From NCBI GenBank assembly GCA_023249645.1, contig JAHFCF010000006.1:56124-120123 (forward strand): DNA of 64,000 bases, given 5' to 3'. The notes beneath the pieces were generated by a model. It worked only from the letters and a program-made list of their open reading frames with translations. It made no database searches and was not told where the DNA came from. Within the stretch, counting starts at the first letter, position 1. The number at the start of each line of letters is the position of its first letter. Below, one piece after another: positions 1,914 through 49,833 of this stretch. The position numbers were made by a program, and so were the translations under genes. The DNA comes from Elusimicrobiota bacterium (GTDB taxonomy: Bacteria; Elusimicrobiota; Elusimicrobia; UBA1565; UBA9628).

Positions 1914-2486
1914 TCAAGTACGGGTCTTCAAGCGCAGGGACTTGAGCACAGACTCGAAAGCCGGCAGATCGTCCTTGTAATCCTGGCCCGCGGCCTTGAA
2001 TGCGAGCACGAGGAATCCTTGTTTCAAGGGCAGGATGACGCGGTCCTCGGTGATCAGCGCGTCGAAGGGGGGGAAGGCCGTGCCCGTGGGGATGTCCAGG
2101 GGTTCGATGCGGTGCTTGCGGGAGCTGACGATCCTCGTCGCCGCCCGGCCCGCGATCGTGATCATTCTGGGCTTGGAGACGCGCCAGGCCTTGTCCTGGC
2201 CCAATCGTGCCTGCAGCGTCAGGAGGTAGTCTTGCGCCCCGCTTTGATGGGGCAGGCGCGTGGGGCTGTATTCGTCTTCCGGATGCGTCTCGATGTGGAT
2301 GCCCGGCCGAAAGCCCCGGGTCTTTCCCGGACCCAGGAGACTGGCGAGGCCCTCTTCGACCGGCCCGACGATCCATGGGGCCGGCACGTCATAGGAATAG
2401 GGTGCGCCCTTCGGGCTCACGACAGCGGCCTGAGCCGCTCCGGCGAGGATCAGGACGGCCAGCCTAACGGATGCGGCAGGCAGCAT
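1914..2486 (-). CDS. Hypothetical secreted protein (N-terminal signal peptide)
   Basis: 190-aa ORF with a hydrophobic N-terminus (LAVLILAGAAQAAVV). It overlaps the stop of the upstream paralog gene by 23 nt. No recognisable domain. Confidence 0.45.
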   Translation of the reverse strand: MLPAASVRLAVLILAGAAQAAVVSPKGAPYSYDVPAPWIVGPVEEGLASLLGPGKTRGFRPGIHIETHPEDEYSPTRLPHQSGAQDYLLTLQARLGQDKAWRVSKPRMITIAGRAATRIVSSRKHRIEPLDIPTGTAFPPFDALITEDRVILPLKQGFLVLAFKAAGQDYKDDLPAFESVLKSLRLKTRT

Positions 2487-4197
2487 ATTCCCAGGTTAAA
2501 GGAGATTCCATCAGCATCTCGACCATGATCCTGTTTTTTTTGGCTTCATTGAGCTTGGGAGCCGCCAGCCGCATGGAGAGCTCATCATACTTGAGGCGCA
2601 TGTTCTGGATGCTTGGATCGCTTTTTTTGAGGGCTTCGCACTCCGCGTGTTTGGCGGACCGCCATTCATCATTGAGGTGGCGCGCCTCTTGGTCAAAGCG
2701 CTCATCGACGGCCAATTGCGCAAGCTTCTCCTCGTCCTTGTCTTGCCGAGCTGATTGCTTTTGCTGATCCAGCGTCACTTGGCCAGCCTGTATTTCCTTC
2801 TTTGGATCAGCGCCATAATACCTGGAAATGAGATCTGCTCGGAAATCAGCAGAGGAGTCTTGAAACTTGTGGAAAATGTCCATCTCTCCATCGGGAAGAA
2901 GGTGGCCGCGTTTTTCCTTGAGTGCGTCGATGGCTTTGCGGTCAGTCTCGATCTGCGAGGGTGCAAGAGGGGTTCCTGAACTCTGAAGATCCTCTTCGAG
3001 TGCTTGGATCTTTTCGTTTAATTCCTGCATTTTATTGGAATAATAACGGTACTCCATCATCCAGGCATAGGTTTCATTGGCGTATTCATTGGTTTTGGGG
3101 TATACATTGTTTCCTCCGCCATGGGATCTGACATGGACGTGGCCCGCTTCATGGAGGAATGTGGCCGCCAAACATTCAATGGAAAAACGTTCCTTGGAGA
3201 TGGCCTCGATCGGCCGGATGATGATTTTGTAGCGGACGGTGTAGTCTGCATTTCGGAGAAGCTGTCCGTTCTGGTCCTTGGCTGTCGTCGTGATCGCGAA
3301 GTTGGGCGATGCGGGGTCCCATTGGATGATGGTGTGATTGCTCGCTACGGCTTCGATGGCTCGCCGCGCATCGGCCAGGGCGATGAGGTCCGTGTGCGGC
3401 GGCCGGCCTGAATCCACGGGCACGGCATGGACGGCCTCCCGCATCAGGGCGAGGATGGAGGCGTCGTAGACCGTGGACAGGGAGTCGACCTGCTGGAGGA
3501 GTTGGGCCTTGATCTGGGCGGGCGTCTGGACTTCGAAAGGCGCATGATCGGATAGGAAGCTGGACTTAATCACCGGCCAGTCAACCGTGTTTTTTCGATC
3601 GGCGCCGTCGAAGTGCGCGGAGAGCAGATAGAAGGCATTCATGCTGGAGGCTTTGTCAATGCCGAGGGGTTGGGACATCCAGGCAGATTGAGCCAGATGC
3701 AGTCCGAATCTTTTGAGCGCCGCGTGCGCGCGCGCCAGGCGTTTCTGCAGGCGCTCTCTTTTGGCCCGGACCGGGAGGGCGGTCGCATCCGCGGCGTCGA
3801 TGATGAATCGCGCGGTCTGGGCCAGGGTGAGCTGCTCTTCGGGCTGGGACATGATGAACGCGACGCGCTTCATCCTCAGGTATTCTTCCGGCGAAAGGCC
3901 CGAGAGCGCTTGCTCGCAGGCGCGGCTCCAGTCTTTGTCCGTGAGGCCGATCGCCGGCGCTTCCTGCCGGTCATAGCGTTCCCGGCATTTTTCCTGCGCC
4001 ACGGCTAGGATGTCCGTGGAGAGCATGGTCCGGCATTGCCAGTCCCAGTCGGCTCGGGTCAGGCCGTAGGGGGCTTCGTAGGATTTCTTGTATCGGCTCG
4101 AGCATCCGGCGGGGTCGAACGGCTGCGCCCGCAGCGATGGCGCGGCCCAGAAGACTGCGAGAAGAAGAAAAAAGCGTTTAACGGATCCGGCAGGCAT
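2464..4197 (-). CDS. Secreted HExxH-motif protein, putative zinc metallopeptidase-like (paralog A of a tandem pair)
   Basis: 577 aa with signal peptide MPAGSVKRFFLLLAVFWAAPSLRAQ. Carries a duplicated N-terminal motif C..RY..x..Y.L.R..WD..C, an FLHEAGHVHV motif and a C-terminal EYAACRIR tail. Collinear with paralog B at HTDLIAL, NHTII, YYGADPKKE and ACRIR. Confidence 0.55.
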   Translation of the reverse strand: MPAGSVKRFFLLLAVFWAAPSLRAQPFDPAGCSSRYKKSYEAPYGLTRADWDWQCRTMLSTDILAVAQEKCRERYDRQEAPAIGLTDKDWSRACEQALSGLSPEEYLRMKRVAFIMSQPEEQLTLAQTARFIIDAADATALPVRAKRERLQKRLARAHAALKRFGLHLAQSAWMSQPLGIDKASSMNAFYLLSAHFDGADRKNTVDWPVIKSSFLSDHAPFEVQTPAQIKAQLLQQVDSLSTVYDASILALMREAVHAVPVDSGRPPHTDLIALADARRAIEAVASNHTIIQWDPASPNFAITTTAKDQNGQLLRNADYTVRYKIIIRPIEAISKERFSIECLAATFLHEAGHVHVRSHGGGNNVYPKTNEYANETYAWMMEYRYYSNKMQELNEKIQALEEDLQSSGTPLAPSQIETDRKAIDALKEKRGHLLPDGEMDIFHKFQDSSADFRADLISRYYGADPKKEIQAGQVTLDQQKQSARQDKDEEKLAQLAVDERFDQEARHLNDEWRSAKHAECEALKKSDPSIQNMRLKYDELSMRLAAPKLNEAKKNRIMVEMLMESPLTWEYAACRIR

Positions 4198-5959
4198 CGT
4201 AGCTCTCCATTAACTTGTTATAGGCGAGATTCAGTTGTGCCCCTCGTCGGTTGAGCGCGTTTTTTTGGGATTCCGATAGTCCGGGTTCATGGGTTCGGAT
4301 GACAATGATGTTGATCTTTTTTCTCAAGTCATTGACGACAGGATCGTTGATGAGCAGGGATCGGCATTCCTCTTTTTTGGCAGTGCGCCATTCTTGGTCG
4401 CGTTGGCGTGTTTCAGCTTCGAAGTCCTCATCCGTGGCCAGTTCTTTGAGCACGGCTGCGCTTTTGATGTCCAGCGCCCATTTTTTTTGCTGCAGGATCG
4501 TCACCTGGCCGGGAAAGATTTCATCTTCTTTGGGGTCAGTGCCATAGTAATCACGGATCATCTCTTCGCGAAACTCAGCAGGCGAGCTCTGGAATGTTTC
4601 CAGGCCGAGCATTTCGGTCTCTGGCATGAAATGGTCCCGCAGGCGTGTGAGCGCTGCAATGGTTTTTGTGAGGTGTTTGCGATCGACCCAAGTCAGAGGG
4701 CTTGGCGAATGGTCGAGATTTTGAGTCAGTCTTTTTATTTGTTCGTTGAACCTCTGGCGCTTGTTCGAGAAATAACGCGCTTCCATTTGATGGGCGTGTA
4801 TTTCATCCGTGTAATTGTTTTTTCCTCCTCCTTGAGCATTGAGATGCACATGGCCGCCGACTTCATGCAAAAGAACTCCAGCTAAAAATTCCAGCGGGTA
4901 ACGGCTCGTTGTGCAAGGCTCTCCGGGTTTGATGGATACTTGATAGCGCCAGGTGCCATCCGCGTTTTTTATCGCTGGGCGGGGTAGAGCTTTCTCTGGT
5001 TTATCTGATTCGGTGAACGTTGTGGCGTAGCTTTTTGATTTGCGGTTTAAAACGATGATGGTATGGTTTAAAATGATGGTTTCAATGGTGTCTTGGACAT
5101 CGGATAGGGCGATGAAGTCCGTGTGCGGCAGCAGCCCTGAGTTGATGGGCACGGAATCGACGAGTTCGCGCATCATGGCGATGATCAGGGGATCATAGGT
5201 CCGTCGGCCCTTTTCGTCTTTGAGCGTGTTCAGGGAGGATATTTGGGCCAGGAGACGAGTCTTGACTTGGAACGGGTCCGGGCGCGTCGGTGCGGCCAGG
5301 CGCGGGGCCGGGCGTTTGGACGCGAGAAAAATGGGGGAAAGCCTGGAGGGCGTCAGGCCGGCGTTGTCAAAGAAATGCGCTGCTTTCCGGTGGAATTCCT
5401 CCGAGGTCTTGGCTTGACCCATCTCGACGGGGAGCGCTCTCAAGTCCGACTCGGCCAAGGAATGTGAGAATCTTTGCCTGGCGGCTTCGGCTTGTTTGAG
5501 GCGGATATGCCACCGTGCCCTTTGTATCAGAATTTTTGGATCCTTCGAATCACTCGTGTCGAACATGAAATCGAAGACATCAGCCACGGTGATCTTATTG
5601 TCCGGCTTTGAGAGGAAACCCCGGATGCGCTGAGCCCGCAGGTATTGTTCCGGGGACACGAATTCCTTCTGCGCTTGATCGCAGTAATCGCGCTCCCACA
5701 TCTCCCTGGTCAGACCGATGTTCTTGCCCTCGTCAGGGTCGTATTTCGCCTTGCATATCTCCTGGGCGATGATCCGGATGTCCGCGGGGACCATCCCCTC
5801 TTCGCATTTGGAATCCCACTCCTCTCGGTTTAAGGAATAAGTCCGATAGGTGTCTTTATACCGTCGTTTGCAATCTTCGATATAGACGGGCGTGACCCCC
5901 CAGGCGCGCGGGGCCATGAGGATCGCGAGAAGGATCAAATAGCGCGCGTGGTTGTGCAT
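4178..5959 (-). CDS. Secreted HExxH-like-motif protein, paralog B of the tandem pair
   Basis: The ORF track gives 4178..6007. The start is more likely the ATG at 5959 (MHNHARYLILLAILMAPRAWG signal peptide, with an AGAGG RBS 10 nt upstream). Motifs: LLHEVGGHVHL, HTDFIAL, NHTII, YYGTDPKED, C-terminal SYDACRIR. Shares the N-terminal Cys-repeat module with paralog A. Confidence 0.55.
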   Translation of the reverse strand: MHNHARYLILLAILMAPRAWGVTPVYIEDCKRRYKDTYRTYSLNREEWDSKCEEGMVPADIRIIAQEICKAKYDPDEGKNIGLTREMWERDYCDQAQKEFVSPEQYLRAQRIRGFLSKPDNKITVADVFDFMFDTSDSKDPKILIQRARWHIRLKQAEAARQRFSHSLAESDLRALPVEMGQAKTSEEFHRKAAHFFDNAGLTPSRLSPIFLASKRPAPRLAAPTRPDPFQVKTRLLAQISSLNTLKDEKGRRTYDPLIIAMMRELVDSVPINSGLLPHTDFIALSDVQDTIETIILNHTIIVLNRKSKSYATTFTESDKPEKALPRPAIKNADGTWRYQVSIKPGEPCTTSRYPLEFLAGVLLHEVGGHVHLNAQGGGKNNYTDEIHAHQMEARYFSNKRQRFNEQIKRLTQNLDHSPSPLTWVDRKHLTKTIAALTRLRDHFMPETEMLGLETFQSSPAEFREEMIRDYYGTDPKEDEIFPGQVTILQQKKWALDIKSAAVLKELATDEDFEAETRQRDQEWRTAKKEECRSLLINDPVVNDLRKKINIIVIRTHEPGLSESQKNALNRRGAQLNLAYNKLMESYDACRIR

Positions 5960-6012
5960 GGAGAAGCCTCTATAAGGAAAGATAACAGAAGCAGTCACAT
6001 CGCGCATGAGCC

Positions 6013-6098
6013 AAAAGACCTAATTAGGTCTAGGTCCTTTTCCAGCCGCTTTCTAGGTCTAAAGCTCCAGAGAGATTGGAGGTCCGCTGAGCTATGAT
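6013..6098 (+). promoter_or_regulatory. Promoter region of gene 6134 with a CTAGGTC(C/T) motif array and a -10-like TATGAT (6093-6098)
   Basis: Contains aaaagacctaattaggtctaggtcctttt (including the perfect 16-nt palindrome agacctaattaggtct), ctttctaggtctaaagc and ggaggtccgc, followed by gctATGATgt and an RBS ggagcaagcc ahead of ATG 6134. Confidence 0.35.
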
Positions 6099-6133
6099 GT
6101 AGGCATGTTTGAAAACCGGCGCAGGAGCAAGCC

Positions 6134-7801
6134 ATGAAACGCTTCCTGGCCTTGGCTCTGAGCTTGACGCTATCCGGGATGCCTGTACGCGCCTTTGCCG
6201 TCGTGGTGCCTTCAGGGGTTGGCTCCACGCCGAGGCCATTCATCCTCGCCGGCCTTCGCGCTGATCTGACTGAGCCGCAGAAGCTCATCGCGCGGCAAGT
6301 GGACGCTGCCGTGGCTTCTCTCACGGCTGAGCAGCTCCGCGCGGCTCCGAGCTTGGCAAGATATCGGGGGATCGATTGGGGAGATCCGGGCTACAAGGCG
6401 ATGGCGCGCTACCTGGAATTCTCCATCCTGCCCCAGGATTCCAAACCGGAGGTCCTGGCCGTACGGCTGGAGGAAGCCCGCGCCGGGGCTGGCCAGGCGA
6501 TCCAGGAGCAGATCCGCAAGGCCTTGGAAGATCGGCTGGCGAACATGACTTTGGGGAATCAGGAAGAGGCCGCGGCAGTGCTCGCTGAGTTGGACCGGGA
6601 GATCGCGGAGTTAAAGCTTCGCCAGACGTTCCCGCAGGAGGTCTCTCTGGGCTTTTCACACGCCGCCCTTCGTGTCAATGAGATGCTGCTTCAGATCACC
6701 GCATCCCAGGCTGTGGAGGAGGTCGTCGCGGCGCCGATGCCGCAGGCTGAAGAACGGAGCCTGCTGTCGCTGCCGAAAGGTCCCGCCCCCGAGGTCGTGG
6801 AAGCTGAGATCGTTTCTCCACAGGATGAGTACAGGATCTTCGATAAAGTGCTTTCAGGCCGCAACATCAGCAGGCCTGCCAGCGACCAAGCCAAAGAGCG
6901 GGGCGTCTTTATTCAGAAAAATTATCACGGCGGTGTGGGACAAATCAAGCTCCCTGAGGAAGCCCGGTATGTCGTCTGGTCCGGGGACGGGGAAGAGGGA
7001 ATCTGGCGCAGAAAAGACGACGGTCGCTATGAGAAATTGTCCGCCACGACCATTGCTGATCTGGCGTTGTTGACAAGAAACTTCGCGAGTCAGAAGGCGT
7101 CTGCCCAAGATCAGGCGTTTAATGAAAGGATGTATACCTCAGACCTGGATCTTAGAAAAACAAAGTTCTTGGATGTTCGTGGCCAGGAAATCGAATACGC
7201 CCCATTCTTCATCGTTAAAACTGGTTTATGGAGGGTCAATGCGGCTGCTTACCAGCCACCGAAGCTGCTGAGACCGCTTACTCTCAAAAATCATCTGGCC
7301 GGTGGTTGGTTGAGCCTTACGCTGGCGGCATGGCCTGGTTTTTTCCTTAACCCGGACCTCTTCACCTTGGCCACGCAGGATTTTACGGTCCTTGGATTGC
7401 TTATTGCATCTGGTTGGGCAGGCACAATAATTGTTGGTTTCGTCTTGAAAAAAAGACTGACAAACGATGAACAAGAAAAATTGATTAAGGATAGCCTTCC
7501 AGCTGCTTTCAAGGCATGGGCTTGCACGGATGAGGGGCGGATCCGGGTTTTGCTAACGGCTGCCATGCTCCCATGGTTGGCCCCCGCTGTTGTTTTTGGA
7601 GCCGGTGCTTTTGCTTTATGGTTTCTGCCGCATATGTTGACGGCTTCTCTGGGGACCGGTGTGTATGCCGCTTATTGCGCGCTGCGCGCCGGCCGGAGCT
7701 ATCGGGAAATGACCCAACGCCTTACGGATTGGAAAAAGGCCCAGCTGGGATTTCAGCCGAACGCCAAGGGACTTCCTTATTCAAGGAGCAAGAAGTCATG
7801 A
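6134..7801 (+). CDS. Hypothetical signal-peptide protein with Gln/Glu-rich coiled-coil region and C-terminal transmembrane helices
   Basis: 555 aa with signal peptide MKRFLALALSLTLSGMPVRAFA. The C-terminal 150 aa are hydrophobic (LTLAAWPGFFL..., LGLLIASGWAGTIIVGFVL, LPWLAPAVVFGAGAFALWFL). Its stop overlaps the start of the M28 gene (ATGA). Confidence 0.5.
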   Translation: MKRFLALALSLTLSGMPVRAFAVVVPSGVGSTPRPFILAGLRADLTEPQKLIARQVDAAVASLTAEQLRAAPSLARYRGIDWGDPGYKAMARYLEFSILPQDSKPEVLAVRLEEARAGAGQAIQEQIRKALEDRLANMTLGNQEEAAAVLAELDREIAELKLRQTFPQEVSLGFSHAALRVNEMLLQITASQAVEEVVAAPMPQAEERSLLSLPKGPAPEVVEAEIVSPQDEYRIFDKVLSGRNISRPASDQAKERGVFIQKNYHGGVGQIKLPEEARYVVWSGDGEEGIWRRKDDGRYEKLSATTIADLALLTRNFASQKASAQDQAFNERMYTSDLDLRKTKFLDVRGQEIEYAPFFIVKTGLWRVNAAAYQPPKLLRPLTLKNHLAGGWLSLTLAAWPGFFLNPDLFTLATQDFTVLGLLIASGWAGTIIVGFVLKKRLTNDEQEKLIKDSLPAAFKAWACTDEGRIRVLLTAAMLPWLAPAVVFGAGAFALWFLPHMLTASLGTGVYAAYCALRAGRSYREMTQRLTDWKKAQLGFQPNAKGLPYSRSKKS

Positions 7802-9033
7802 GAATCTCCCTTAGTCTTCTCATCCTCTGTTCCGGGATCGCGTCTGCTGCTTCAGTTCCCGGAGAGAATTTCAAAAAGCCTCCGGTCGGCGCCGAGTTCC
7901 ATGGCAGCGGCGTGCCCGTGCCGCCCGTCCCGATAGCCCCGGCCACGCTCAAATCCGACGCGCCGGGAGCGCCTGCCCCCGACCAAGTCCCCGGTCCCTT
8001 GCCCGCGCCGGCAGTGCCGGCCCCGGTTCCTGTTCCCGTCCCTGAGAAAAAGCCGGTCGCCCCTCATTCTGGCTTGGCCTCGGTCGTTCCTCCGACGATC
8101 AATGCCCAGGACGTGCAGAAGGTCCAGGCCGATCTCACCGCCCTTTACGACAAGGGCCGCCTGACAGATGCCTCCATCGAGAGCTTCGTCGCATCCGTTC
8201 AGGGGACCCTCTCCCGGCACGGCCGCCCGGCGGTCCTGCGGCCCGAAGGCATGCCCACGGACGACCAGGTGGATCAGAATATGAGGAGCGCGCCCATGCG
8301 CTACGAAGACCGCCTGGCCATGGTCGCCGAGATCTTGACAAAGAATGCCGGGGTCAAGCCCGAAGAGCTCGTCTACCAGGACGTGGACGGACAGAAGAAC
8401 ATCTACTGGGTCAAGAAGGGGAGCACGGATCGGGTCATCGTCATCGGTTCGCACCACGACAAGGTGGATGGGCCGAGCCACGGCACCATCGACAATTGGA
8501 CGGGGAGCATGATCATGGCCCATCTCTCTCAGGTCATGCGGGAGTTGGACACGGAGGCCACCTATATCTTCGCCAGCTTCGCGCGCGAGGAGGATGGGCT
8601 GCTGGGCTCGGCCCAGTTCGTGCGGTCGCTGGCGCAGGATGCGAAGCAGAAGATCAATGCCATGCTCAACTTCGACACCTTGGCCGTGGACGGCACCTAC
8701 ACTTTGAAGAACACTCCTCCCTGGAGGATCTATTCCTCACAGCTTCTGCTTGACCTTTTCAGGAAGGTCGCGGAGGCTGAGAAGCTGCCTCTCGAAGAGG
8801 TGGAGCTCGAAGGCGGGGACGCGGACTCAAGCTCGTTTAAGGAATTCACCCACGCCATCACCGTCTTGGGCGCCAGGCCGCCGGGGATCTTCGACAAGAT
8901 CCATTCGGCGGCGGACAACATGTCGGAGTTCTCCCTGCCGCACTACATCAACGCCCTCAAGCTGGGCGTGGCTGTGCTGATGTACTTGAATCACCATGCC
9001 CTTCCGCCTTTCGAGGCCGCTGCCAGGAGTTGA
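7797..9033 (+). CDS. M28 family zinc aminopeptidase, secreted, with Pro/Ala-rich linker
   Basis: The ORF-track start at 7573 is an upstream extension. The likely start is ATG 7797 (MRISLSLLILCSGIASAASVP). M28 ligand motifs are present: GSHHDKVDG (HxD), DNWTG, AREEDGLLGS (EE), NFD, and a C-terminal His. Confidence 0.7.
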
Positions 9034-9683
9034 TCATGCCCGCCATCCCCCGCATCCGATCCATCGATTTCCTCTCGCCGCAACCGGCCGACCCCAGTTC
9101 CGGAGAAGCCGAGATCAGGGTCACCCTGGAGGATGGAAGCTCGTCGGCTTTCGGCATCCTCACTCCCGACCGGGTGGCGCTGGGCATGGCTGAGGCGGGC
9201 AAGGATTACTCCTTCGGCTCGCCGACGCTTTTCCTCAAACGCTTGGACCAGGACTGCCTGGGCAAGGCGGCCGAGGCCATGGCCGGCCGCATGGGAGGGT
9301 TCTGGCTGAGGTATTACAACTCCAAGCCTCTGGCGGCCGGGCAGGTCAAGAAGCTGCGCGTGGGCTCCGTCGAGCTTTCCGACATCGAGCCGAAGAAGGG
9401 TCCGACCCATGGCAGCGCCGCGGTCCAGGTGAAGCTCTCGGATGAAAGGCAATTCTCCATCCTCGCGGCCACTCCCGGTTGGTTCGTGGAGGCCTTGGAT
9501 AAGCTCGGGCTGGAGTTCTATTTCGGCCCCTGCGTCCTTTTTCTGAGCTCCCTGCAGGCCGACCTGGCGCGTGCGGCCGTCGCCCAGATGATCAAGGGCG
9601 GCGACCAGCGCCTGTGCCGCTACGACACGCCGCGCCTGACCCTGCCGCAGGTCCTCGCCGACTTCAAGGCGAAGTCCGCCTAG
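9030..9683 (+). CDS. Hypothetical protein, third gene of the M28 operon
   Basis: 217-aa ORF whose TTG/ATG start overlaps the stop of the M28 gene. GC3-rich coding. No recognisable domain. Confidence 0.45.
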   Translation: MIMPAIPRIRSIDFLSPQPADPSSGEAEIRVTLEDGSSSAFGILTPDRVALGMAEAGKDYSFGSPTLFLKRLDQDCLGKAAEAMAGRMGGFWLRYYNSKPLAAGQVKKLRVGSVELSDIEPKKGPTHGSAAVQVKLSDERQFSILAATPGWFVEALDKLGLEFYFGPCVLFLSSLQADLARAAVAQMIKGGDQRLCRYDTPRLTLPQVLADFKAKSA

Positions 9684-9783
9684 GTCCTCGGTCCGCCAAA
9701 GGGCCTATTTCAAGCTAGGTCCAAAGACGGCTCTTTTCTGGGTCCAAAGGTCCAAGGCGGCTGGGAGGCCTTGTCGATATAAT
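9680..9783 (+). promoter_or_regulatory. Promoter region of the M48 protease gene: repeated (C/G)TAGGTCC and GGTCCAAAG motifs and a TATAAT -10 (9778-9783)
   Basis: Sequence ctaggtcctcggtccgccaaagggcctatttcaagctaggtccaaagacgg...gggtccaaaggtccaagg...gtcgaTATAATgg. ATG 9796 lies 13 nt after the -10, so the leader is short or absent. Confidence 0.4.
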
Positions 9784-9795
9784 GGTCTCATTATT

Positions 9796-12660
9796 ATGAT
9801 GAAGAAATTTCTCGCTTCCTTTATTGCCGCCGTCCTCATCGTGACCGCTCCCGGCCTTTCCTCGTATGCCGCGGCGGCAGGTGTTTTTGGGAAGTCATGG
9901 CCCATCGGTCCGGGAGGCAGGATCATCGGCCCGGTAGGCGGGCACATAGCCGTGTCTGCCCCTCAGAAGGATTTCCGTATTTTTTCTCTGGAGGCCGAGA
10001 GCCAGTATTCTCCAGCGCCTGGTTGGACTGATCAGGCGGCTTTTACGGGTCGACCTCTCCCAGCTGATCAGCCTTCTCATGAGCCGTTGAAGCGGATATT
10101 GTCAGGCCAGGTGACGCTCGCTACCCCTGATGCGCACAGGCCTGTGGCTGGACTGCGGACCTGGGCCGCTGATGCGATGGACCGCCTCTTAGGCCTGGCC
10201 CCGCAGCGCTCTGCGCCAGACGAGACCCGGGCGCTTGCTGATTCCCAGGAGCCGGCTCCAGCGGCTTCTGCCAAGTTGGGGAGATCATCTTCCCTTACCC
10301 CTGAACAAGCCCCTGAGCTTGCTCAGGTGCCTGCGCCGGTCTTTGAGTCCCGCACCATGATCGTGGTCCGCATCGGTGTCGTCGCCGGGGCCGTGGTCGG
10401 TCTGCAGGCCTTGCTGCCCGCGGCTTTGGGCGCGGTCTCCGTGGCCGCGGTCTGGGCCGTGAGCCCGGGGATATTCCTGTTGCCCGTCGCCCTTTACGCC
10501 CGCCATCGCCTCGCTGCGCGCGACTCGCCGCGCCTGAGCAGCGTCAAGCGGCTGATGGATGGAGCCGTCGGCGCGTTCATCGGCGCCGCCATCGTCGCCG
10601 GCGTCTTCGCTTCCCCGAGCCTAGGACTCCTCTTGGCCGTCAAGCAGCTCGCCTTTGCCGGCCTGCCTTTGGCCTCCCTGGCCGTGGGCCGCGCTCTGTC
10701 CAACGTGACGACCCTGCCTGATTCCGCCGGGACCTACGCGATTTTGGCCATCCTGCCGGGCCTCCTGGGCGCGACAGCGGCCGGTCCCATCGGCCTGGTG
10801 CCCGTGCTGGGAATGCTGGCGCTCGCCGCCATGACGACCATCTCCTTCTGCCTTGGCCGCATCATTGCCGCGGCTGAGTCGGGCAGGCCGTTCTCGGTCC
10901 CCGGCTCCATACAGAAGATGCGTTTCCCTGTCAGCCAGTGGGTCATGCTCGGTGTGATCTTCGCCACTTGGTCCGGGCTCAAGGAGGTCTATGCCAATCA
11001 GGTTTTTTGGGCGTGGCAGATCCTCGGGTCGAGGACCTTCGCGTGGCAGAAGGACGCTCCGCTCTGGAAGAACCTTGTCTACAATCTGGCCAACTTCAAC
11101 GTCCTCTATGCGGGGCTCCTGGCTTTCGTGATCGTGACATTTTTCATGGCCGGGGCTTTGAGCCCCCTGACCTTCCTGGCCTTGGCCTTCGCGCCTGAGC
11201 GAGCGGCTCTAGCGGCGGAGGCGCTCTTGGGCAAGCTTCTGCCCAAGTCCGAACCGGCGCCATCGACGGGCGTCGAGCCAGTGGCTGATCCCTCCACGAC
11301 GGCTGATGAGCCCGTGAAGCGGCCTCAGTTCCATTATTGGCTCAAGACCCTCTCGGCTGTCGCCTCCATCGCCGTCCTGGGCCTGTGCCTGGGGACTTGG
11401 GCGTATACCTGGAAGAACTTCGCCAAGACTTTCGGCATGGCTTCTCTGATGGCCATCGGGCAGTTTTTCGGCTCCAAATATCTCATCAAGCGCCTCATGA
11501 ACACGACTCCGGCCGATGAGAAGAATAAGGATGATCAGAAGGTCTTCGCTGTCCGCAACGATCTGATGCGGCGCATCAACGACGGCCGCGTGCGCAGGGG
11601 CAAGAAGCCCATCGACGACGCTCACCGGCCCGAGCTCGTGGATGATCCCAACCTTCTTCCCAACGCCTATGCCACGGGCTGGGGTCCTTCCCATGCTCTG
11701 ATCGGCGTGACCAAGGGCATCAAGCTGATGCTCTTGGATCCGGAGAATCTGCGCCAGGGGCTTTTGCGGCTCATGGCTTCCTGCGACGCGGAGACCAAGG
11801 CCTTCAAGCTCTTCCGGGCCGCCATCGCCGGCTCGCTGGGCAAGGACCGGATCCCGCCGGAGGCCTCGCCCTCGCAGGTGGCCGAGGCTGTCCAAAGCGC
11901 TCCTGCTGAGGCTCTCGATCTCCTGGGCGTGCGCGTCCTGCGCGGGGTGATGGCTCACGAGCTCAACCATGTGATGGATTGGCACATGGCGATCGGCGCG
12001 GCCGCCGGGGCTTTCACCTCGGCTCTGTCCATGGCGAGCTGGTCGGCCATGTGGCTCGTGGGAAAGTTCAAAGACCTGCCAAAAAAGCTGGAGGCTTGGG
12101 CCGCGGAGCCCCGGCCGTTCACTCCCATCGACCGGGTCAAGACCTGGGGGCTGCAGAGCGCCCAAGCCGTGGCTGAGCCCGTGTCCGTGGTCGTGGTCGG
12201 CGGGGCGATCGCGGTACTGGCCGTGATCAAGGCCTTCGCCATCGTCTGGGGGCCCCTGGCCGCCATTCTTTTGCAGATGGCTTCTTCGCGGGCTGATGAG
12301 GGCATGGCTGATGAGGACGGGGCCAAGCTGTCCGGTGATCCAGAAGCCCTGGGCCTGGGCTTGGGTCTGCTGATGACCTGGCAGCCGCCGAAAGGCTTTC
12401 AGGTGGATAACTTGGCGGTCATCGCGCTCAATGCGCACCGCTACACGGTCAATCCTCTCGAGCAGATGCGCAACGCCGGGGTCTTGCCCCGCTTAAGCCG
12501 CCTGGCCGAAGCGCTCGCGGGCGGCAGCGACGACTTCTTCTTCAACCTCTTCGTCACGCATCCGGACACTCTGCTGCGCATCATGCGGCTGCGCGACATG
12601 ATGTCGCGCATCGACAGGCTTTCCGGAAAGTCCGTCGATGCGGGGCGGCTCAAGCCATGA
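9796..12660 (+). CDS. M48-family (HtpX/Ste24-like) zinc metalloprotease with ~550-aa polytopic N-terminal membrane domain
   Basis: 954 aa with a signal peptide, then about 10 hydrophobic segments. The C-terminal half carries M48 motifs in canonical order: NAYATGWG (NAFATG-like), VMAHELNHVMDWH (HExxH) and FVTHPDTLLRI (HPxxxxRI). Confidence 0.65.
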   Translation: MMKKFLASFIAAVLIVTAPGLSSYAAAAGVFGKSWPIGPGGRIIGPVGGHIAVSAPQKDFRIFSLEAESQYSPAPGWTDQAAFTGRPLPADQPSHEPLKRILSGQVTLATPDAHRPVAGLRTWAADAMDRLLGLAPQRSAPDETRALADSQEPAPAASAKLGRSSSLTPEQAPELAQVPAPVFESRTMIVVRIGVVAGAVVGLQALLPAALGAVSVAAVWAVSPGIFLLPVALYARHRLAARDSPRLSSVKRLMDGAVGAFIGAAIVAGVFASPSLGLLLAVKQLAFAGLPLASLAVGRALSNVTTLPDSAGTYAILAILPGLLGATAAGPIGLVPVLGMLALAAMTTISFCLGRIIAAAESGRPFSVPGSIQKMRFPVSQWVMLGVIFATWSGLKEVYANQVFWAWQILGSRTFAWQKDAPLWKNLVYNLANFNVLYAGLLAFVIVTFFMAGALSPLTFLALAFAPERAALAAEALLGKLLPKSEPAPSTGVEPVADPSTTADEPVKRPQFHYWLKTLSAVASIAVLGLCLGTWAYTWKNFAKTFGMASLMAIGQFFGSKYLIKRLMNTTPADEKNKDDQKVFAVRNDLMRRINDGRVRRGKKPIDDAHRPELVDDPNLLPNAYATGWGPSHALIGVTKGIKLMLLDPENLRQGLLRLMASCDAETKAFKLFRAAIAGSLGKDRIPPEASPSQVAEAVQSAPAEALDLLGVRVLRGVMAHELNHVMDWHMAIGAAAGAFTSALSMASWSAMWLVGKFKDLPKKLEAWAAEPRPFTPIDRVKTWGLQSAQAVAEPVSVVVVGGAIAVLAVIKAFAIVWGPLAAILLQMASSRADEGMADEDGAKLSGDPEALGLGLGLLMTWQPPKGFQVDNLAVIALNAHRYTVNPLEQMRNAGVLPRLSRLAEALAGGSDDFFFNLFVTHPDTLLRIMRLRDMMSRIDRLSGKSVDAGRLKP

Positions 12661-12670
12661 CAACGCATTG

Positions 12671-12805
12671 CCCTTTGGTCCTAGGTTCAGGGGGGTCTTT
12701 TGGCCCATCGAGGGCCCGCCAAAGGTCCCAGATGTCCTGGGTCCAATGCCAGGGCCGTCCTAGGTCCTTGGACCTGTACGCTTTCAGGACGCCGGACGCT
12801 ATAAT
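12671..12805 (+). promoter_or_regulatory. Promoter region of the receiver gene: CTAGGTCC/AAAGGTCC motif array and a TATAAT -10 (12800-12805)
   Basis: Sequence ccctttggtcctaggttcag...gccaaaggtcccagatgtcctgggtccaatgcc...cgtcctaggtccttggacctg...gcTATAATag. Includes the GGTCC-TT-GGACC inverted repeat. Confidence 0.4.
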
Positions 12806-12825
12806 AGATGCGGAAGGTTGATACG

Positions 12826-13233
12826 ATGGATCCAAAAAACGAGATGTTCATTTTTATCGTCGAAGACGACTCTCATTTCCGGGAGACTTTCTCGGACGTG
12901 ATGTCTTTGCGCGGGGTCAAGGTCAGCGGCGCCGGCACGGCCGAGGAAGCCCTGAAGGCCTTGAAGACCCAGACGCCCAGCGTCATCGTCGTGGATGTGC
13001 GTCTGCCGGACATGCATGGCTTCGACCTGTGCCGGCGGCTGCGTCGCATGCCGGGCCTGCAGAAGACGCCCGTCATGCTCCTCTCCGGGGTTTCGCGCTA
13101 CAACGATCCGCGCGACCGCGTGGAAGGACTTTTATCCGGCGCGGCCGCGTTCCTCGTCAAGCCCATCACCATCGAGGACCTCTGGGCCCAGATCTGCGCT
13201 GTTCTCGGCCGGCCGGCGACTGAATTCGCTTGA
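12826..13233 (+). CDS. Stand-alone response regulator receiver (CheY-like) protein
   Basis: Sequence MDPKNEMFIFIVEDDSHFRETF...VIVVDVRLPDMHGFDLCRRLR...LLSG...FLVKP has the receiver acidic pocket and no output domain. The ORF track starts at ATG 12808. ATG 12826 is preferred because it follows a GGAAGG RBS. Confidence 0.65.
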   Translation: MDPKNEMFIFIVEDDSHFRETFSDVMSLRGVKVSGAGTAEEALKALKTQTPSVIVVDVRLPDMHGFDLCRRLRRMPGLQKTPVMLLSGVSRYNDPRDRVEGLLSGAAAFLVKPITIEDLWAQICAVLGRPATEFA

Positions 13234-13302: not shown

Positions 13303-13629
13303 ATGGCTGAGATCGAGGCGACGGATAAGAACTTCCAGACAGAGGTTGTCGGGAGTCCCTTGCCGGTGCTGGTCGATTTCTGGGCTCCCTGGTGCGGACC
13401 CTGCCGGATGATCGCTCCATCTATCGCCGAACTGGCCATTGAATATAAGGACCGCGTGCGCGTGGCCAAGCTCAACATCGACGACAATCCCAACACGGCG
13501 ACGGCCTACCGCGTCATGTCCATCCCGACGCTCCTTTTCTTCAAGGGCGGCAAGCCCGTCGATCAGATCGTGGGCGCCCACTCGAAGGCGGAGATCAAGA
13601 AGCTCCTCGAATCCCTTCTGGCCGCGTAG
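13303..13629 (+). CDS. trxA: Thioredoxin
   Basis: 108 aa with the WCGPC active site ([18 protein letters not shown]). Confidence 0.9.
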
Positions 13630-13668: not shown

Positions 13669-16245
13669 ATGAAACCCAGGCTCTACCTGGTCGATGCGCA
13701 TGCCTTTCTCCACAGGGCCTATCATGCCCTGCCGCCCTTGACCAATTCCAAGGGCGAGCCCGTGGGCGCTCTCTATGGGTTTGCCCGGATGCTCCTGCAG
13801 CTATTGAAAAAAGACAAGCCGGAACGCATGGCCGTGTGCTTCGATTCGCCCGGGCCCACCTTCCGGCATAAGATCTTCGCGGACTACAAGGCGACCCGCA
13901 AGGCCATCGATGAAGACCTCGTTTTCCAGCTCAAGCTCGCCCGAGAGATGACCGAGGCCATGGGATTTCCCTGCGTGGGAAAGCCAGGCTTCGAGGCCGA
14001 CGACCTCATGGCCACCTTGGCTGTCCAGGCGAAGAAAGCGGGCTATGAGGCGGTGCTGATCACCGGCGACAAGGACGTCCTTCAGATGGTGGGGCCGGAT
14101 ATCCGGGTCTTCAATCCTTCCAAGCAGGCCTGGATGGGAGCCTCTGAGGTGGAAGCCCGGCTCGGGGTCGGTCCTGAGTCCGTGGTGGATTACCTGGCCC
14201 TGATCGGCGACACCTCGGACAATGTCCCGGGAGTGCGCGGCATCGGCCCTGTGGGAGCGGTCAAGCTCCTTAAACAATTTAAGACGCTGGAGAAAGCGAT
14301 TGCCGCGGCCAAGGCGCATGACCCGGCGATTGCGCCCAAGACGGCCCAGGCGCTCACCGATGGAGAGCAGGACGCCCAGCGCGCCATCGCGCTGATCAGG
14401 CTCGACACCCAGGCTCCGGTGGATAAAAAGTCAGCCGAGATCGGAGCGCCTGAGCCCCAGGCCGAGAAGCTCAAGGCTGTCTTTGGCCGCCTGGAGTTCG
14501 CCAAGCTCCTCCAAGAGATCCTTCCGCGCAGCGGCGACGCCGCCTTGGCTGCCTCAGAGCCCGCCAGCGCGGTGAAGATATCGATCCGGGAAGTGCCTTT
14601 TGATGAATTGCGCCAGGAGTTCTCTCGTGCCAAGACGATCGCGGTGACGGCTCGGCTCAATGCCAAGCCGGACCTGACCGAGGGCGCGGTGCTGGCCGTC
14701 CTGGGTCTGCCGGATGGAAGGGCGGCACTTTTGAATGAGCCGTTCTTGCGCCAGGAAGCCGGGCTTCTTACCCAACTCCTTTCGAGCCCGGCTTTGAAGG
14801 TGGGCTATGACTTGAAAGAGACCCGAGCGGCTCTGCAGACCGTCGGGGTTCGCGCTTCAGGCAGGTTCTTCGACACCATGCTCGCCGCCTATTGCCTCAA
14901 TCCGGCTGATTCAGGCCGAAGCACGGTGGCCAAGGATATCCGACTCTCGGTGCTGCAAGCCGCAGTCAAGGCCCTGGAGCATCAGGTCCTCATCGAGGGC
15001 ATGCAGAGCGCCGGAGTCCTGAAGCTTTTCGAGGATATCGAGATGCCTCTCTGCGAGATTTTGCGCGCCATGGAGGCCGAGGGCGTGGCCGTGGACCAGG
15101 CCTACCTCGAATCTCTTCTGGAGGAGTTCGAGTCCGACATCGCCGCCTTGAACAAGGAGATCGGCGCTCTGGCGGGGGCCGAGGTCAATGTCAATTCGCC
15201 CAAGCAGCTGGGGGTCCTCCTCTACGACACCTTGAAGCTTCCCGTGCCGCATGAGACGGCCAAGGGCGGCCGCTCGACGGATGAGGAGGCTCTGCAGGCC
15301 CTGGCCAAGCTCCATCCCATCGCGGCCAAGATCCTCGATCATCGGGAACTCTCCAAGCTCAAGTCCACCTATGTCGTCGGACTTTTGGAGCGGCTCGACC
15401 CCAAGACCTCTCGCGTGCACACGCATTTCGACCAGACCGGTACGGCCACGGGGCGGCTTTCGAGCCTCGACCCCAATCTTCAGAACATCCCCGTGCGCTC
15501 CGCCTCAGGCCAGAGGATCCGTCGCGCCTTCATCGCTCCCAAGGGGTGCGTGTTGGTCTCCGCGGATTATTCGCAGATCGACCTGCGCGTCTTGGCCCAT
15601 GTCTCGGGAGATGAGACCCTCACGGCGTCCTTTGCCAAGAACGAGGATGTCCACACCCGCACGGCCAGCGAGGTCTTCCACGTGTCCCTCGATGAGGTCA
15701 CGACCGAGATGCGCCGCCGCGCCAAGACCATCAATTTCGGCATCGTCTATGGCCAGACCCCCTTCGGCCTGGCCTCGGAATTGGGCATCCCGCAGTCCGA
15801 GGCCAGCCAAGCCATCAAGGACTATTTCGCCCGCTATCCGGGCATCCAGACCTGGGTCGCGCGCAATCTGGAGGCGGCCCGCAAGGAGGGCTGCGTGCGC
15901 ACACTGGCCGGCAGAGTCCGGCATCTCCCGGAGCTGCATGCCAAGAACACGGCCCTGCGCCAGTTCGCCGAGCGCGCGGCGCGCAACACGCCGATCCAGG
16001 GAGGCTCGGCGGACATCATCAAACTGGCCATGATCGAGGTGGCCAAGGGTCTGCCTTCTCTGGGCAAGGTCAAGATGATCCTGCAGATCCATGACGAGCT
16101 CCTCTTCGAGGTCCCGAAGGCCGAGATGGAGCGTGTGGCTGCTTGGGCCAAGAAGACCATGGAGCATGCGATCGTCTTGAAGGTGCCTTTGGTCGTGGAT
16201 GTGAAGGCCGGCCTCAATTGGCAGGAGATGGAGGCGGTGAAATGA
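13669..16245 (+). CDS. polA: DNA polymerase I
   Basis: 858 aa. N-terminal 5'-3' exonuclease region (LYLVDAHAFLHRAYHA), then the pol A palm motifs (RRAKTINFGIVYG, QIHDELLFE). Confidence 0.95.
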   Translation: MKPRLYLVDAHAFLHRAYHALPPLTNSKGEPVGALYGFARMLLQLLKKDKPERMAVCFDSPGPTFRHKIFADYKATRKAIDEDLVFQLKLAREMTEAMGFPCVGKPGFEADDLMATLAVQAKKAGYEAVLITGDKDVLQMVGPDIRVFNPSKQAWMGASEVEARLGVGPESVVDYLALIGDTSDNVPGVRGIGPVGAVKLLKQFKTLEKAIAAAKAHDPAIAPKTAQALTDGEQDAQRAIALIRLDTQAPVDKKSAEIGAPEPQAEKLKAVFGRLEFAKLLQEILPRSGDAALAASEPASAVKISIREVPFDELRQEFSRAKTIAVTARLNAKPDLTEGAVLAVLGLPDGRAALLNEPFLRQEAGLLTQLLSSPALKVGYDLKETRAALQTVGVRASGRFFDTMLAAYCLNPADSGRSTVAKDIRLSVLQAAVKALEHQVLIEGMQSAGVLKLFEDIEMPLCEILRAMEAEGVAVDQAYLESLLEEFESDIAALNKEIGALAGAEVNVNSPKQLGVLLYDTLKLPVPHETAKGGRSTDEEALQALAKLHPIAAKILDHRELSKLKSTYVVGLLERLDPKTSRVHTHFDQTGTATGRLSSLDPNLQNIPVRSASGQRIRRAFIAPKGCVLVSADYSQIDLRVLAHVSGDETLTASFAKNEDVHTRTASEVFHVSLDEVTTEMRRRAKTINFGIVYGQTPFGLASELGIPQSEASQAIKDYFARYPGIQTWVARNLEAARKEGCVRTLAGRVRHLPELHAKNTALRQFAERAARNTPIQGGSADIIKLAMIEVAKGLPSLGKVKMILQIHDELLFEVPKAEMERVAAWAKKTMEHAIVLKVPLVVDVKAGLNWQEMEAVK

Positions 16246-28263: not shown

Positions 28264-28284
28264 AATGGTAAAATCCAAACGCGC

Positions 28285-29376: not shown

Positions 29377-29392
29377 ATCCCCAGGAGTGGGC

Positions 29393-49769: not shown

Positions 49770-49833
49770 ATCAGGGTCGGGAGCCTAGGTCAAGAGACCT
49801 AGGAGGCGTAGGTCTTATGCGGGATTTTTTTTA
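49770..49833 (+). promoter_or_regulatory. CCTAGGTC inverted repeat (cctaggtc aaga gacctagg), additional TAGGTCT and palindrome GGCCCTTTGGCCC upstream of gene 49877
   Basis: Seen directly. Same CTAGGTC motif family as the other promoter arrays. Confidence 0.35.

Follow-up and report, generated by a model that had tools for sequence, protein, structure and literature searches.

A giant HtpX-like M48 protease and its conserved gene neighbours in an Elusimicrobiota genome

Overview

A 954-aa protein encoded in an Elusimicrobiota genome is predicted to be an integral-membrane M48 zinc protease whose catalytic core is HtpX-like, although the protein is not an HtpX equivalog. The core is preceded by a domain of about ten helices which, judged from sequence searches, appears confined to this subfamily of giant M48 proteases. 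This architecture—an HtpX-type core joined to a large membrane domain found only in Elusimicrobia—is new. The gene directly upstream encodes a 217-aa protein that is a conserved neighbour of the protease. Among bacterial membrane quality-control proteases, HtpX-type enzymes are, to our knowledge, those least understood; a phylum-restricted form with a dedicated membrane domain, frequent transporter fusions and a conserved, putative cytoplasmic partner may reveal how substrates are selected or received.

The locus and its start codons

The window, the whole 64-kb stretch of DNA that was analysed, carries five open reading frames of interest, all on the + strand. The set of five genes, the protein motifs and the upstream repeat arrays given in a preliminary description are all present, with small corrections to coordinates. 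The genes are:

6134..7801, + strand: orphan protein of 555 aa; signal-like segment at the N terminus, hydrophobic helices towards the C terminus at about residues 416-499
7798..9033, + strand: exported M28 aminopeptidase-family protein, 411 aa (Pfam match, signal peptide)
9036..9683, + strand: the 217-aa protein (w217), cytoplasmic, with two paralogous alpha+beta domains of ~105 aa; 215 aa from ATG 9036
9796..12660, + strand: HtpX-like M48 zinc metalloprotease, 954 aa (Pfam, motifs, structure model)
12826..13233, + strand: stand-alone CheY-like receiver, 135 aa (Pfam Response_reg)

Three genes, those for M48, the 217-aa protein and the receiver, have their start codons corrected here; the public version of the M48 protein, P0001, has 767 aa. 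An ATGA overlap was said to join the M28 gene to the 555-aa gene, and ATG 7798-7800 does overlap TGA 7799-7801, with AGGAG 9 nt upstream, which places the start at 7798 and not 7797. The TTGA overlap proposed for the next junction exists literally at 9030-9033, but the supported start is ATG 9036: AGGAG lies at 9025-9029, an identical public protein (P0043) begins at this codon, and the alignments of all homologues begin at its residue. For the receiver, ATG 12826, preceded by GGAAGG, is the most likely start, rather than 12808.

The M48 protease

The 954-aa protein is laid out as follows:

residues 1-28: signal peptide
residues 29-185: Pro/Ala-rich region, disordered, poorly conserved and modelled with low confidence
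residues 186 to ~480 (nt 10351-11235): conserved, family-specific polytopic domain of ~300 aa with ~10 helices
between that domain and the core: linker
residues 514-954: HtpX core
residues 514-563: two helices, counterpart of HtpX TM1-2
residue 623: NAYATG
residues 721-725 (nt 11956-11970): HELNH (HExxH)
residues ~730-830: hydrophobic hairpin
residue 833: ADEGMADEDG, with the Glu ligand E835
residue 922: HPDTLLRI

NAYATG, HExxH and HPxxxxRI fall in the order first reported, with the Glu-ligand motif between the last two. An N-terminal domain of ~550 aa with about ten transmembrane segments had also been described; the ten or so helices are upheld, while the region itself divides into four parts, of which the conserved polytopic domain occupies just residues 186 to ~480. 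Assignment to family M48 is supported by the Pfam profile (PF01435 Peptidase_M48, 41.3 bits against a gathering cutoff of 20.3, residues 715-935), by HExxH with its downstream Glu ligand, and by an M48 catalytic fold; 33 homologues all keep E835, A838 and D839. Hydropathy places hydrophobic blocks at 519-561 and ~735-826; the HtpX plan has two hydrophobic segments ahead of the catalytic domain and two between HExxH and the Glu ligand, with the active site in the cytoplasm. The HtpX equivalog models (NCBIfam PRK03001 and others) gave at best 91 bits against a cutoff of 369.

At three times the length of HtpX (M48B, E. coli type), the protein differs from it in the signal peptide, spacer of disordered sequence and ~10-helix domain that lie ahead of the core, and in an insert of ~85 residues in the hairpin; some of its relatives bear C-terminal MFS, cold-shock or Rce1-like fusions. 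Ste24/ZMPSTE24 (M48A), the seven-helix chamber protease, has no detectable sequence similarity to it outside the catalytic core, Foldseek giving just E = 0.06 with TM-scores of 0.33-0.41, and the number and order of helices differ. Unlike BlaR1/MecR1, which belong to M56, the M48 protein lacks a penicillin-binding sensor domain and an adjacent BlaI-type repressor. Exact-sequence look-ups of the 954-aa protein and P0001 returned no record, and literature searches found nothing on the giant M48 architecture.

The N-terminal half had been called unusual, which holds for its membrane domain; the possibility that would refute this, a separate, widely distributed domain, was tested and not borne out. 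A profile of the membrane domain matched 43 of 1.84 billion representative proteins, and none of the 43 is a complete protein consisting of the membrane domain alone. Full-length matches carry the domain at the same position in large proteins, short ones look like truncated reading frames, and in all eight of the weakest matches scanned Peptidase_M48 follows directly. Every one of the 42 word-indexed homologues with a source name is from Elusimicrobia. Among GTDB representatives, matches N-terminal to about residue 465 come only from Elusimicrobia loci, other phyla matching the HtpX part alone. A lenient Pfam scan of the domain gave stray single matches only, and its profile, run against all reading frames of the related loci, showed no similarity to the ~1100-aa MFS-like neighbour described below. 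The structure model of the domain is moderately confident (pLDDT 40-92 per 10-residue block).

Orientation of the catalytic core

The neighbourhood had been presented as extracytoplasmic. For the M48 core the evidence points the other way: a cold-shock domain lies 28 residues past the M48 domain in P0005 and P0003, an MFS domain lies past it in P0012 and P0035, and no membrane segment intervenes between the M48 C-terminus and either domain in these relatives. Since such fusions, together with the HtpX-like layout, place the catalytic side in the cytoplasm, the active site probably lies on that side, like that of HtpX. The abundance of K and R in loops 233-253 and 469-518 also favours this orientation. 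No self-consistent topology model for the N-terminal part came from hydropathy combined with the positive-inside rule: the conserved N-terminal signal peptide and paired hydrophobic blocks conflict with the positive-inside pattern at loop 233-253. Because of this conflict, the orientation is drawn from the domain fusions of relatives. The term 'extracytoplasmic' also fails for the 217-aa protein and the receiver, neither of which has a signal peptide.

The 217-aa protein

This protein, listed at first as unknown from 9030 to 9683, indeed has no Pfam match, but is now resolved as a fusion of two paralogous ~105-aa domains, which in relatives are encoded by separate genes for 109 and 113 aa directly upstream of the giant M48 gene. 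The search for solved structures likewise gave no match, and the structure model itself is confident. Of about 21 genome loci, 17 have the 217 family upstream of M48; anchored instead on the 217 family, the giant M48 gene is next on the same strand in 18 of the 26 metagenome loci with enough downstream sequence. M48 occurs with no 217 gene nearby in four loci (L016, L023, L027, L028), and the 217 gene with no adjacent M48 in another four (L001, L112, L116, L129). A further protein, P0044, from a short contig, is 83% identical.

The receiver

The receiver contains PF00072 Response_reg only (82 bits) and no output domain. Aligned with a CheY sequence, it conserves the positions D12/D13, D57, T87 (Ser here) and K109, and K-P is kept; with its phospho-acceptor constellation intact, it is a stand-alone CheY-like receiver, as reported. 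The label 'orphan' is also apt, the neighbours being M48 and Trx with no adjacent histidine kinase; the only kinase identified among the reading frames scanned (33296-34516) lies beside its own regulator. Like the single-domain response regulators DivK, EpsW and CheY, it consists of a receiver domain alone with conserved Asp-Asp, Asp57, Ser/Thr and Lys; unlike them, it is found here without chemotaxis or cell-cycle gene context and without a nearby partner kinase. Its orthologue in relatives is the receiver after S8 (58-75% identity), and in two divergent loci, L023 and L027, the gene right after M48 encodes a single-domain receiver.

Promoter motif arrays

Three arrays of a short motif lie between the genes:

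6016..6059, + strand: array upstream of the 555-aa gene, with palindrome AGACCTAATTAGGTCT at 6016-6031 and TAGGTC at 6025, 6031 and 6054
6093-6098: -10-like TATGAT upstream of the 555-aa gene
9680..9783, + strand: M48 promoter region, a (CTA)GGTCC array with CTAGGTC at 9680 and 9715 and five GGTCC in all
12671..12805, + strand: M48-receiver intergenic region, a GGNCC/TAGGTC array with CTAGGTC at 12760 and palindrome GGTCCTTGGACC
12671-12694: terminator-like hairpin between M48 and the receiver
12800-12805: TATAAT upstream of the receiver

CTAGGTC occurs at 6030, 6053, 9680, 9715 and 12760, and these five copies, upstream of the 555-aa, M48 and receiver genes, agree with the report of arrays ahead of all three transcription units. 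Across the three intergenic regions, 409 nt in total, TAGGTC/GACCTA is present in 7 copies where 0.195 would be expected, and none of 20,000 shuffles reached 7. The two densest GGTCC windows in the whole 64 kb are those upstream of M48 and of the receiver. The arrays lie ~25 to ~115 nt upstream of the -10 box; TATAAT at 9778-9783 is 12 nt before the M48 ATG, so the M48 transcript is predicted to be nearly leaderless.

Related GGNCC arrays are kept at orthologous promoters in relatives, ahead of M48, of S8 and of the ~1100-aa gene, and are absent upstream of Trx and PolI. The region before the receiver is homologous to the promoter of the S8(-M50)-receiver operon of relatives (local alignment score 34, shuffle maximum 25). 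The genes had been called co-regulated; what stands is motif evidence, an enriched motif common to three promoters with related arrays in relatives, which makes co-regulation of the units through common arrays plausible. No DNA-binding regulator that might act on the motif was identified. In the same region an Rfam scan gave no RNA family and a generic repeat search nothing besides the short motifs.

A probably remodelled gene block

Relatives share a conserved gene order: M28, an AddAB-like pair, a ~1100-aa MFS-like protein, the 217 family, M48 (often fused to an MFS or cold-shock domain), an S8/M50 protease, the receiver, Trx and PolI. The S8 peptidase between M48 and the receiver is often S8+M50, and a C39-like peptidase occasionally lies upstream, all of which reinforces the proteolytic theme of a 'peptidase neighbourhood' while its extracytoplasmic character does not extend to the M48 core. 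The window's version lacks the AddAB-like pair, the ~1100-aa gene and S8, and on balance is probably a trimmed, lineage-specific version of a block conserved across Elusimicrobiota. Trx, PolI, rhomboid, CoaE and AddAB-like genes keep the same order in the block across genomes, with 45-75% protein identity. Because housekeeping genes also keep their order, neighbourhood alone is weak evidence of a common function, and the synteny may be partly historical.

In the M28 protein a signal peptide and a Pro-rich linker precede the M28 domain, residues 205-381 (PF04389, 69 bits against a cutoff of 21); it is thus a putative secreted peptidase, as first described. Its family assignment is supported by a profile score above gathering and by the co-catalytic metal ligands, whose positions (GSHHD, IDNWTG, REED, NFDT, IHS) are conserved across Elusimicrobia orthologues; the last His is presumably a ligand, as in the structures of SGAP and GCPII. 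Set apart from the core of the block by the AddAB-like pair in relatives, M28 is, from comparison of the loci, a conserved neighbour at the block's edge.

The 555-aa protein, first described as a coiled-coil/TM protein, has a signal-like segment at its N terminus, hydrophobic segments at its C terminus and no Pfam match. A homology search with it returned nothing, not even itself, low-complexity words having probably swamped the candidate list; it is treated as an orphan because tblastn against all related loci fetched gave no homologue. Neither the gene nor the pair of paralogues occurs in any related locus. Across 2401-7800 the GC content is mostly 0.50-0.56, with two 600-nt bins at 0.62-0.64, and mostly ~0.60-0.65 in flanking bins, which suggests that the gene sits in a low-GC insertion gained in the window's lineage; we think this somewhat likely. 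The supposed operon of 555-aa, M28 and 217-aa genes is a lineage-specific juxtaposition, since relatives have three or four genes between M28 and the 217 family; the apparent operon is thus a recent mosaic.

Interpretation

The explanation we favour, with modest confidence, is that of an HtpX-like protease with an extra domain, a 217-aa partner, a receiver and a common regulator, in a remodelled block. The M48 enzyme would cut membrane or membrane-associated proteins from the cytoplasmic side, with the extra polytopic domain as a substrate-docking, gating or sensing module; the C-terminal MFS fusion of many relatives suggests physical coupling of the protease to a transporter. The 217-aa protein may be its cytoplasmic partner, whether adaptor, regulator or inhibitor, and the receiver probably connects the block to a histidine kinase. 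One DNA-binding factor probably co-regulates the three units through the arrays. From promoter homology, the S8 gene appears to have been lost and the receiver kept behind the former S8 promoter; loss of intervening genes would have brought M28 next to the 217-aa gene, and the 555-aa gene would have come in with the low-GC insertion.

A bolder reading, which we consider rather unlikely, unites the block in one membrane machine, not described before, that carries out regulated proteolysis or couples proteolysis to transport. It would be built from the ~1100-aa MFS-like protein, the two-domain 217 protein, the giant protease with or without MFS, the S8/M50 fusion and the receiver. The ten-helix domain and the 217 family would then be new folds, acting as sensing or gating and regulatory subunits, under a dedicated factor binding GGNCC/TAGGTC.

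It is less probable that the genes form a co-regulated extracytoplasmic module in which exported and membrane peptidases degrade external or envelope proteins, for example for peptide supply. The signal peptide and intact metal ligands of M28 fit such a module, as do the conserved signal peptide of M48 with its Pro/Ala-rich spacer resembling that of M28, the shared promoter motif, and the S8/M50 and C39-like peptidases and MFS domains in the relatives' block. The HtpX-like core with its C-terminal fusions nevertheless points to the cytoplasm, neither the 217-aa protein nor the receiver carries an export signal, and the AddAB-like pair between M28 and the core in relatives argues against a dedicated operon.

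Just as doubtful is a proteolytic signalling device, where the polytopic domain would be the sensor of a membrane or envelope cue and M48 would cleave a cytoplasmic regulator, like BlaR1/MecR1 or in a site-1/site-2 cascade via S8/M50, with the 217-aa protein as substrate or regulator and the receiver as output or input. The fusion of S8 to M50 and its predicted co-transcription with the receiver in relatives, the adjacency of receiver and M48 in three divergent lineages, and the tight linkage of the 217-aa gene to M48 would suit it. However, neither the 217-aa protein nor the receiver has a DNA-binding domain, S8/M50 is missing from the window, and the match to BlaR1 reflects the common gluzincin core, not the sensor architecture.

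Slightly less credible again is that there is no functional module, only an inherited Elusimicrobiota gene order, remodelled by deletions and one insertion, whose genes act independently. The order of Trx, PolI, rhomboid, CoaE and AddAB-like genes and the independent loss of individual members speak for this; the enriched arrays common to three promoters, kept at orthologous promoters and not before Trx or PolI, and the 217-M48 adjacency found from both anchors speak against it.

We give almost no credence to the 217-aa protein being an Imm8-type immunity or inhibitor protein neutralising the neighbouring protease, which is not a polymorphic toxin. In a lenient Pfam scan 10 of 19 family members matched Imm8 (PF15586) weakly, always in the second domain and over profile positions ~43-90, but at 14-19 bits against a cutoff of 27; the window protein itself had no match, and membership was rejected. 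Imm8 confers immunity to Ntox7 and Tox-EHHH nucleases and has a C-terminal WEa motif (PMC3482391), a part of the profile that the 217 family leaves unmatched. PADLOC models of anti-phage defence matched none of the M48, 217-aa, 555-aa and M28 proteins or the paralogues, giving generic receiver-domain matches only.

Two uncharacterised families are defined here, the ten-helix domain and the tandem ~105-aa domain protein; being sharply delimited, both are good structural and biochemical targets, and the conserved promoter element is directly testable.

Gene organisation

The region 6013-13233 carries five genes, all on the plus strand. Trx and PolI lie downstream of them, and a rhomboid protease gene and CoaE come after PolI. 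These genes, the paralogue pair upstream and the predicted promoter boxes are:

2464-4197 and 4178-6007, minus strand: paralogue pair, 38% identical
6093-6098: -10-like box TATGAT, array upstream
6134-7801, plus strand: 555-aa gene, without family match
7798-9033, plus strand: M28 gene, 411 aa, Pfam Peptidase_M28
9036-9683, plus strand: '217-aa' gene, 215 aa from the supported start, without Pfam match
9778-9783: -10-like box TATAAT, array upstream
9796-12660, plus strand: M48 gene, 954 aa, Pfam Peptidase_M48
12800-12805: -10-like box TATAAT, array upstream
12826-13233, plus strand: receiver gene, 135 aa, Pfam Response_reg
13303-13629: Trx, downstream of the receiver
13669-16245: PolI, downstream of Trx

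The genes listed in the preliminary description were confirmed with minor corrections. The ATG of the M28 gene overlaps the upstream TGA as ATGA (7798-7801), and AGGAG stands nine bases ahead of it. A similar TTGA, described as joining M28 to the next gene, is present at 9030-9033 but is not that gene's start; this is ATG 9036, because it is preceded by AGGAG (9025-9029), is the first codon of the identical public protein P0043 and marks the point from which all homologues align. A Pfam scan of the 555-aa and 217-aa proteins returned no family.

In the M28 protein a Pro-rich linker joins the signal peptide to the M28 domain, and seven Elusimicrobia orthologues share the ligand-bearing motifs of this domain; the last His ligand is presumably that of the IHS motif, going by the SGAP and GCPII structures. 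In an alignment to CheY, the receiver retains both residues of the acidic pair, the Asp that accepts the phosphoryl group and the Lys-Pro, with Ser at position T87. The sole kinase identified among the window ORFs scanned (33296-34516) lies beside its own regulator.

Elsewhere in the window, two ORFs without a Pfam match, of 956 aa (26752-29622, minus strand) and of 779 aa, overlap on opposite strands, and a Memo-AMMECR1 fusion protein is encoded at 342-1757 on the minus strand. In L008, the public contig identical to this DNA, the fusion gene has a radical SAM gene beside it, giving an AmmeMemoRadiSam trio whose position relative to M28 is kept in relatives.

Architecture of the 954-aa M48 protease

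The layout of the protein was drawn from an alignment of 33 homologues, hydropathy and an AlphaFold2 model:

Residues 1-28: signal peptide
Residues 29-185: Pro/Ala-rich variable segment, low confidence
Residues 186 to about 480: conserved polytopic domain of about ten helices
Between polytopic domain and HtpX-like core: Pro-rich linker
Residues 514-563: two membrane helices of the HtpX-like core
Residues 623, 721, 833-842 and 922: core motifs NAYATG, HELNH, the Glu-ligand motif and HPDTLLRI

Invariant polar residues of the polytopic domain in this alignment include E361, R376, E468 and R469. A hydrophobic hairpin follows HELNH in the core and carries an insert of about 85 residues. The AlphaFold2 model has a mean pLDDT of 67, with values above 90 in the catalytic domain and of 40-92, in ten-residue blocks, in the membrane domain. 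HtpX models of NCBIfam match the protein best, yet far under their equivalog cutoffs; a PDB sequence search was empty, and nothing was found that specifically matches the membrane domain.

Homologues (42 hits, 38-54% identity) often span 98% of the query, and all those with a named source are annotated Elusimicrobia or Elusimicrobiota. In GTDB, sampled at one genome per species, the alignment of about twenty Elusimicrobia loci starts in the N-terminal part and extends to residue 935-953; in other phyla the HtpX-like part alone matches, no match beginning before about residue 465. The public copy, P0001, is called as 767 aa with its start at residue 188. The 954-aa reading is preferred because the signal peptide is conserved, relatives align over the full length and a promoter lies directly upstream of 9796; the deposited MAG probably has the wrong start for this gene (the 9796-10357 stretch). 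Some family members are extended at the C-terminus by a fused domain, which is either an MFS transporter domain (about 650 aa), a cold-shock domain or a CPBP protease domain of the Rce1-like type (P0012, P0035, P0005, P0008 and P0095).

The preliminary description had regarded this architecture as unusual. The alternative, that the N-terminal half is a separate and widespread domain, fared poorly when a profile of the membrane domain only (A2) was searched against 1.84 billion representative proteins, of which 43 matched. Full-length matches are large proteins with the domain at roughly residues 200-600, the sole exception being a 2405-aa protein (1702-2027), while short matches sit at a protein end and appear to be truncated ORFs. 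When nine weaker matches were scanned with Pfam, Peptidase_M48 lay right behind the domain in eight, including the seven weakest; one of these eight also had MFS_1 and one an Rce1-like domain. The ninth, of 815 aa, had no Pfam match. Since the eight carry M48 and only 43 proteins were found, the membrane domain is not a widespread, separately encoded module. As judged from these searches, the M48 protein has an unusual architecture that is confined to the phylum.

Orientation of the catalytic part

A cold-shock domain is a nucleic-acid-binding module, and MFS proteins have their termini in the cytoplasm. A cold-shock domain begins about 28 residues after the M48 domain in the relatives P0005 and P0003 and also follows it in P0008, and an MFS domain follows it in P0012 and P0035. 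Because of these fusions the C-terminal catalytic part is most likely cytoplasmic, as it reportedly is in E. coli HtpX. Family averages show many Lys and Arg residues in loops 233-253 and 469-518; in the N-terminal part, a cleavable signal peptide and paired hydrophobic blocks conflict with the positive-inside pattern. The term 'extracytoplasmic', first applied to the proteolysis module, thus finds no support for this protease from the fusions in relatives, which suggest a core that probably faces the cytoplasm.

The 217-aa protein

By BLAST the 217-aa protein corresponds to two adjacent genes, of 109 and 113 aa (60-65% identity per half), that several relatives carry directly ahead of the giant M48 gene; others have the fused form. 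Its halves are paralogous (about 28% identity, E = 1e-7). The AlphaFold2 model is confident (pLDDT 87, pTM 0.86) and gives each half the topology strand-strand-strand-helix-strand-helix-helix. Weak matches to Pfam Imm8 (14-19 bits against a cutoff of 27) were found in 10 of 19 family members, always in the second half. Imm8 is described as conferring immunity to nuclease toxins and has a signature C-terminal motif (PMC3482391), which falls outside the part matched by the 217 family; the possible relation to Imm8 is a lead only.

A conserved block in relatives

In genome and metagenome loci of relatives a recurrent order is found: M28, an approximately 770-aa protein, a PDDEXK_1 protein, an approximately 1100-aa protein and the 217 family, followed by (sometimes) a C39-like peptidase, the giant M48, S8, the receiver, Trx, PolI, rhomboid and CoaE. 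The 770-aa and PDDEXK_1 proteins form an AddAB-like pair, and the 1100-aa protein has weak HAD and MFS matches. In 17 of about 21 genome loci a 217 family gene precedes M48. Among the 26 metagenome loci anchored on 217 with at least 1.5 kb downstream, the giant M48 comes next on the same strand in 18. The approximately 1100-aa gene stands immediately before the 217 family in most loci; its product, of about 1100-1270 aa, is the most constant upstream neighbour (L004 2782-6105, L005 2996-6283, L006 2905-6726).

A large S8 (subtilase) gene lies between M48 and the receiver (L006 14379-17621, L005 10195-13257, L009 13688-16000), with an S8-to-receiver gap of 10-30 nt in relatives. In some relatives S8 is fused to Peptidase_M50 (site-2 protease), an unusual combination. 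The S8 gene is predicted to be co-transcribed with the receiver.

At the most divergent M48 loci, L023 and L027, the 217 family gene and S8 are both absent, and a single-domain receiver stands directly behind M48; next comes a 287-aa protein whose HxHxDH motif resembles that of metallo-beta-lactamases (L023 13018-14378, L027 12726-13981). M48 is found without a nearby 217 gene in L016, L023, L027 and L028, and the 217 gene without an adjacent M48 in L001, L112 and L116; in L129 Trx directly follows it.

Differences in the window

The window lacks the AddAB-like pair, the approximately 1100-aa gene and S8, which brings M28 next to the 217-aa gene and M48 next to the receiver. The M28-217 adjacency recurs in one metagenome contig, L141. 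The 165 nt ahead of the receiver align with the S8 promoter of L005, L009 and L006 (local score 34; shuffle maximum 25), the common elements being GGTCCCAG, TGGGTCnAwTG, a GGACCTTCGACCCGTACG-like element and CGCTATAAT. The window receiver is 73-75% identical to the post-S8 receivers of L005 and L009 and about 60% to those of other loci. The most economical explanation is a deletion of the S8 coding region that spared its promoter and the receiver.

No counterpart of the paralogue pair or the 555-aa gene was found in relatives, and GC over this segment is mostly 0.50-0.56 against roughly 0.60-0.65 in most flanking bins, consistent with an insertion between a conserved 190-aa gene and M28. On this comparison the 555-M28-217 unit is a recent mosaic. 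The 'operon' proposed for M28 and the 555-aa gene is a lineage-specific accident, as relatives have intervening genes and lack the 555-aa gene. The paralogues, for which Pfam returned nothing, may be secreted metalloprotease-like proteins: the N-terminus of each resembles a signal peptide, and an HExxH motif is present in one as HEAGH and, in degenerate form, in the other as HEVGGH.

Promoter motif and predicted regulation

Motif arrays precede all three transcription units, as first described, and are strongly enriched. Seven of the 18 copies of TAGGTC/GACCTA in 64 kb fall in the three intergenic regions (409 nt) where 0.195 are expected, a count reached in 0 of 20,000 shuffles. Plus-strand GGTCC occurs 11 times in these regions against 0.55 expected, and the two densest GGTCC windows of the whole sequence are the regions upstream of M48 and the receiver. 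The M48 -10 box ends 12 nt from the ATG, with the same layout in relatives, so the transcripts are predicted to be nearly leaderless. Related GGNCC arrays lie upstream of M48 (for example TTAGGACCTAAGACC and TGGGCCGAA), S8 and the approximately 1100-aa gene in relatives. The Trx promoter is a plain TTGACT-17-TATCAT, and no array was found upstream of PolI. A shared regulator for the motif-bearing units is a reasonable inference.

Of the proteolysis module originally proposed, a conserved, protease-rich block with shared promoter elements stands, but its core probably faces the cytoplasm and the M28/555-aa operon is not upheld. The block includes conserved housekeeping neighbours; because of these, synteny alone overstates functional coupling. 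In the best-supported model, the membrane protease is HtpX-like, has a dedicated membrane domain, acts with a cytoplasmic partner and would be co-regulated with a receiver.

At 49785-49815 there is a further, inverted TAGGTC array (CTAGGTC-aaga-GACCTAG, then TAGGTC), which suggests that the motif marks a small regulon. It lies between two divergently oriented genes, that for the large subunit of a molybdenum hydroxylase (47493-49724, minus strand) and a family-less 204-aa ORF (49877-50491, plus strand).
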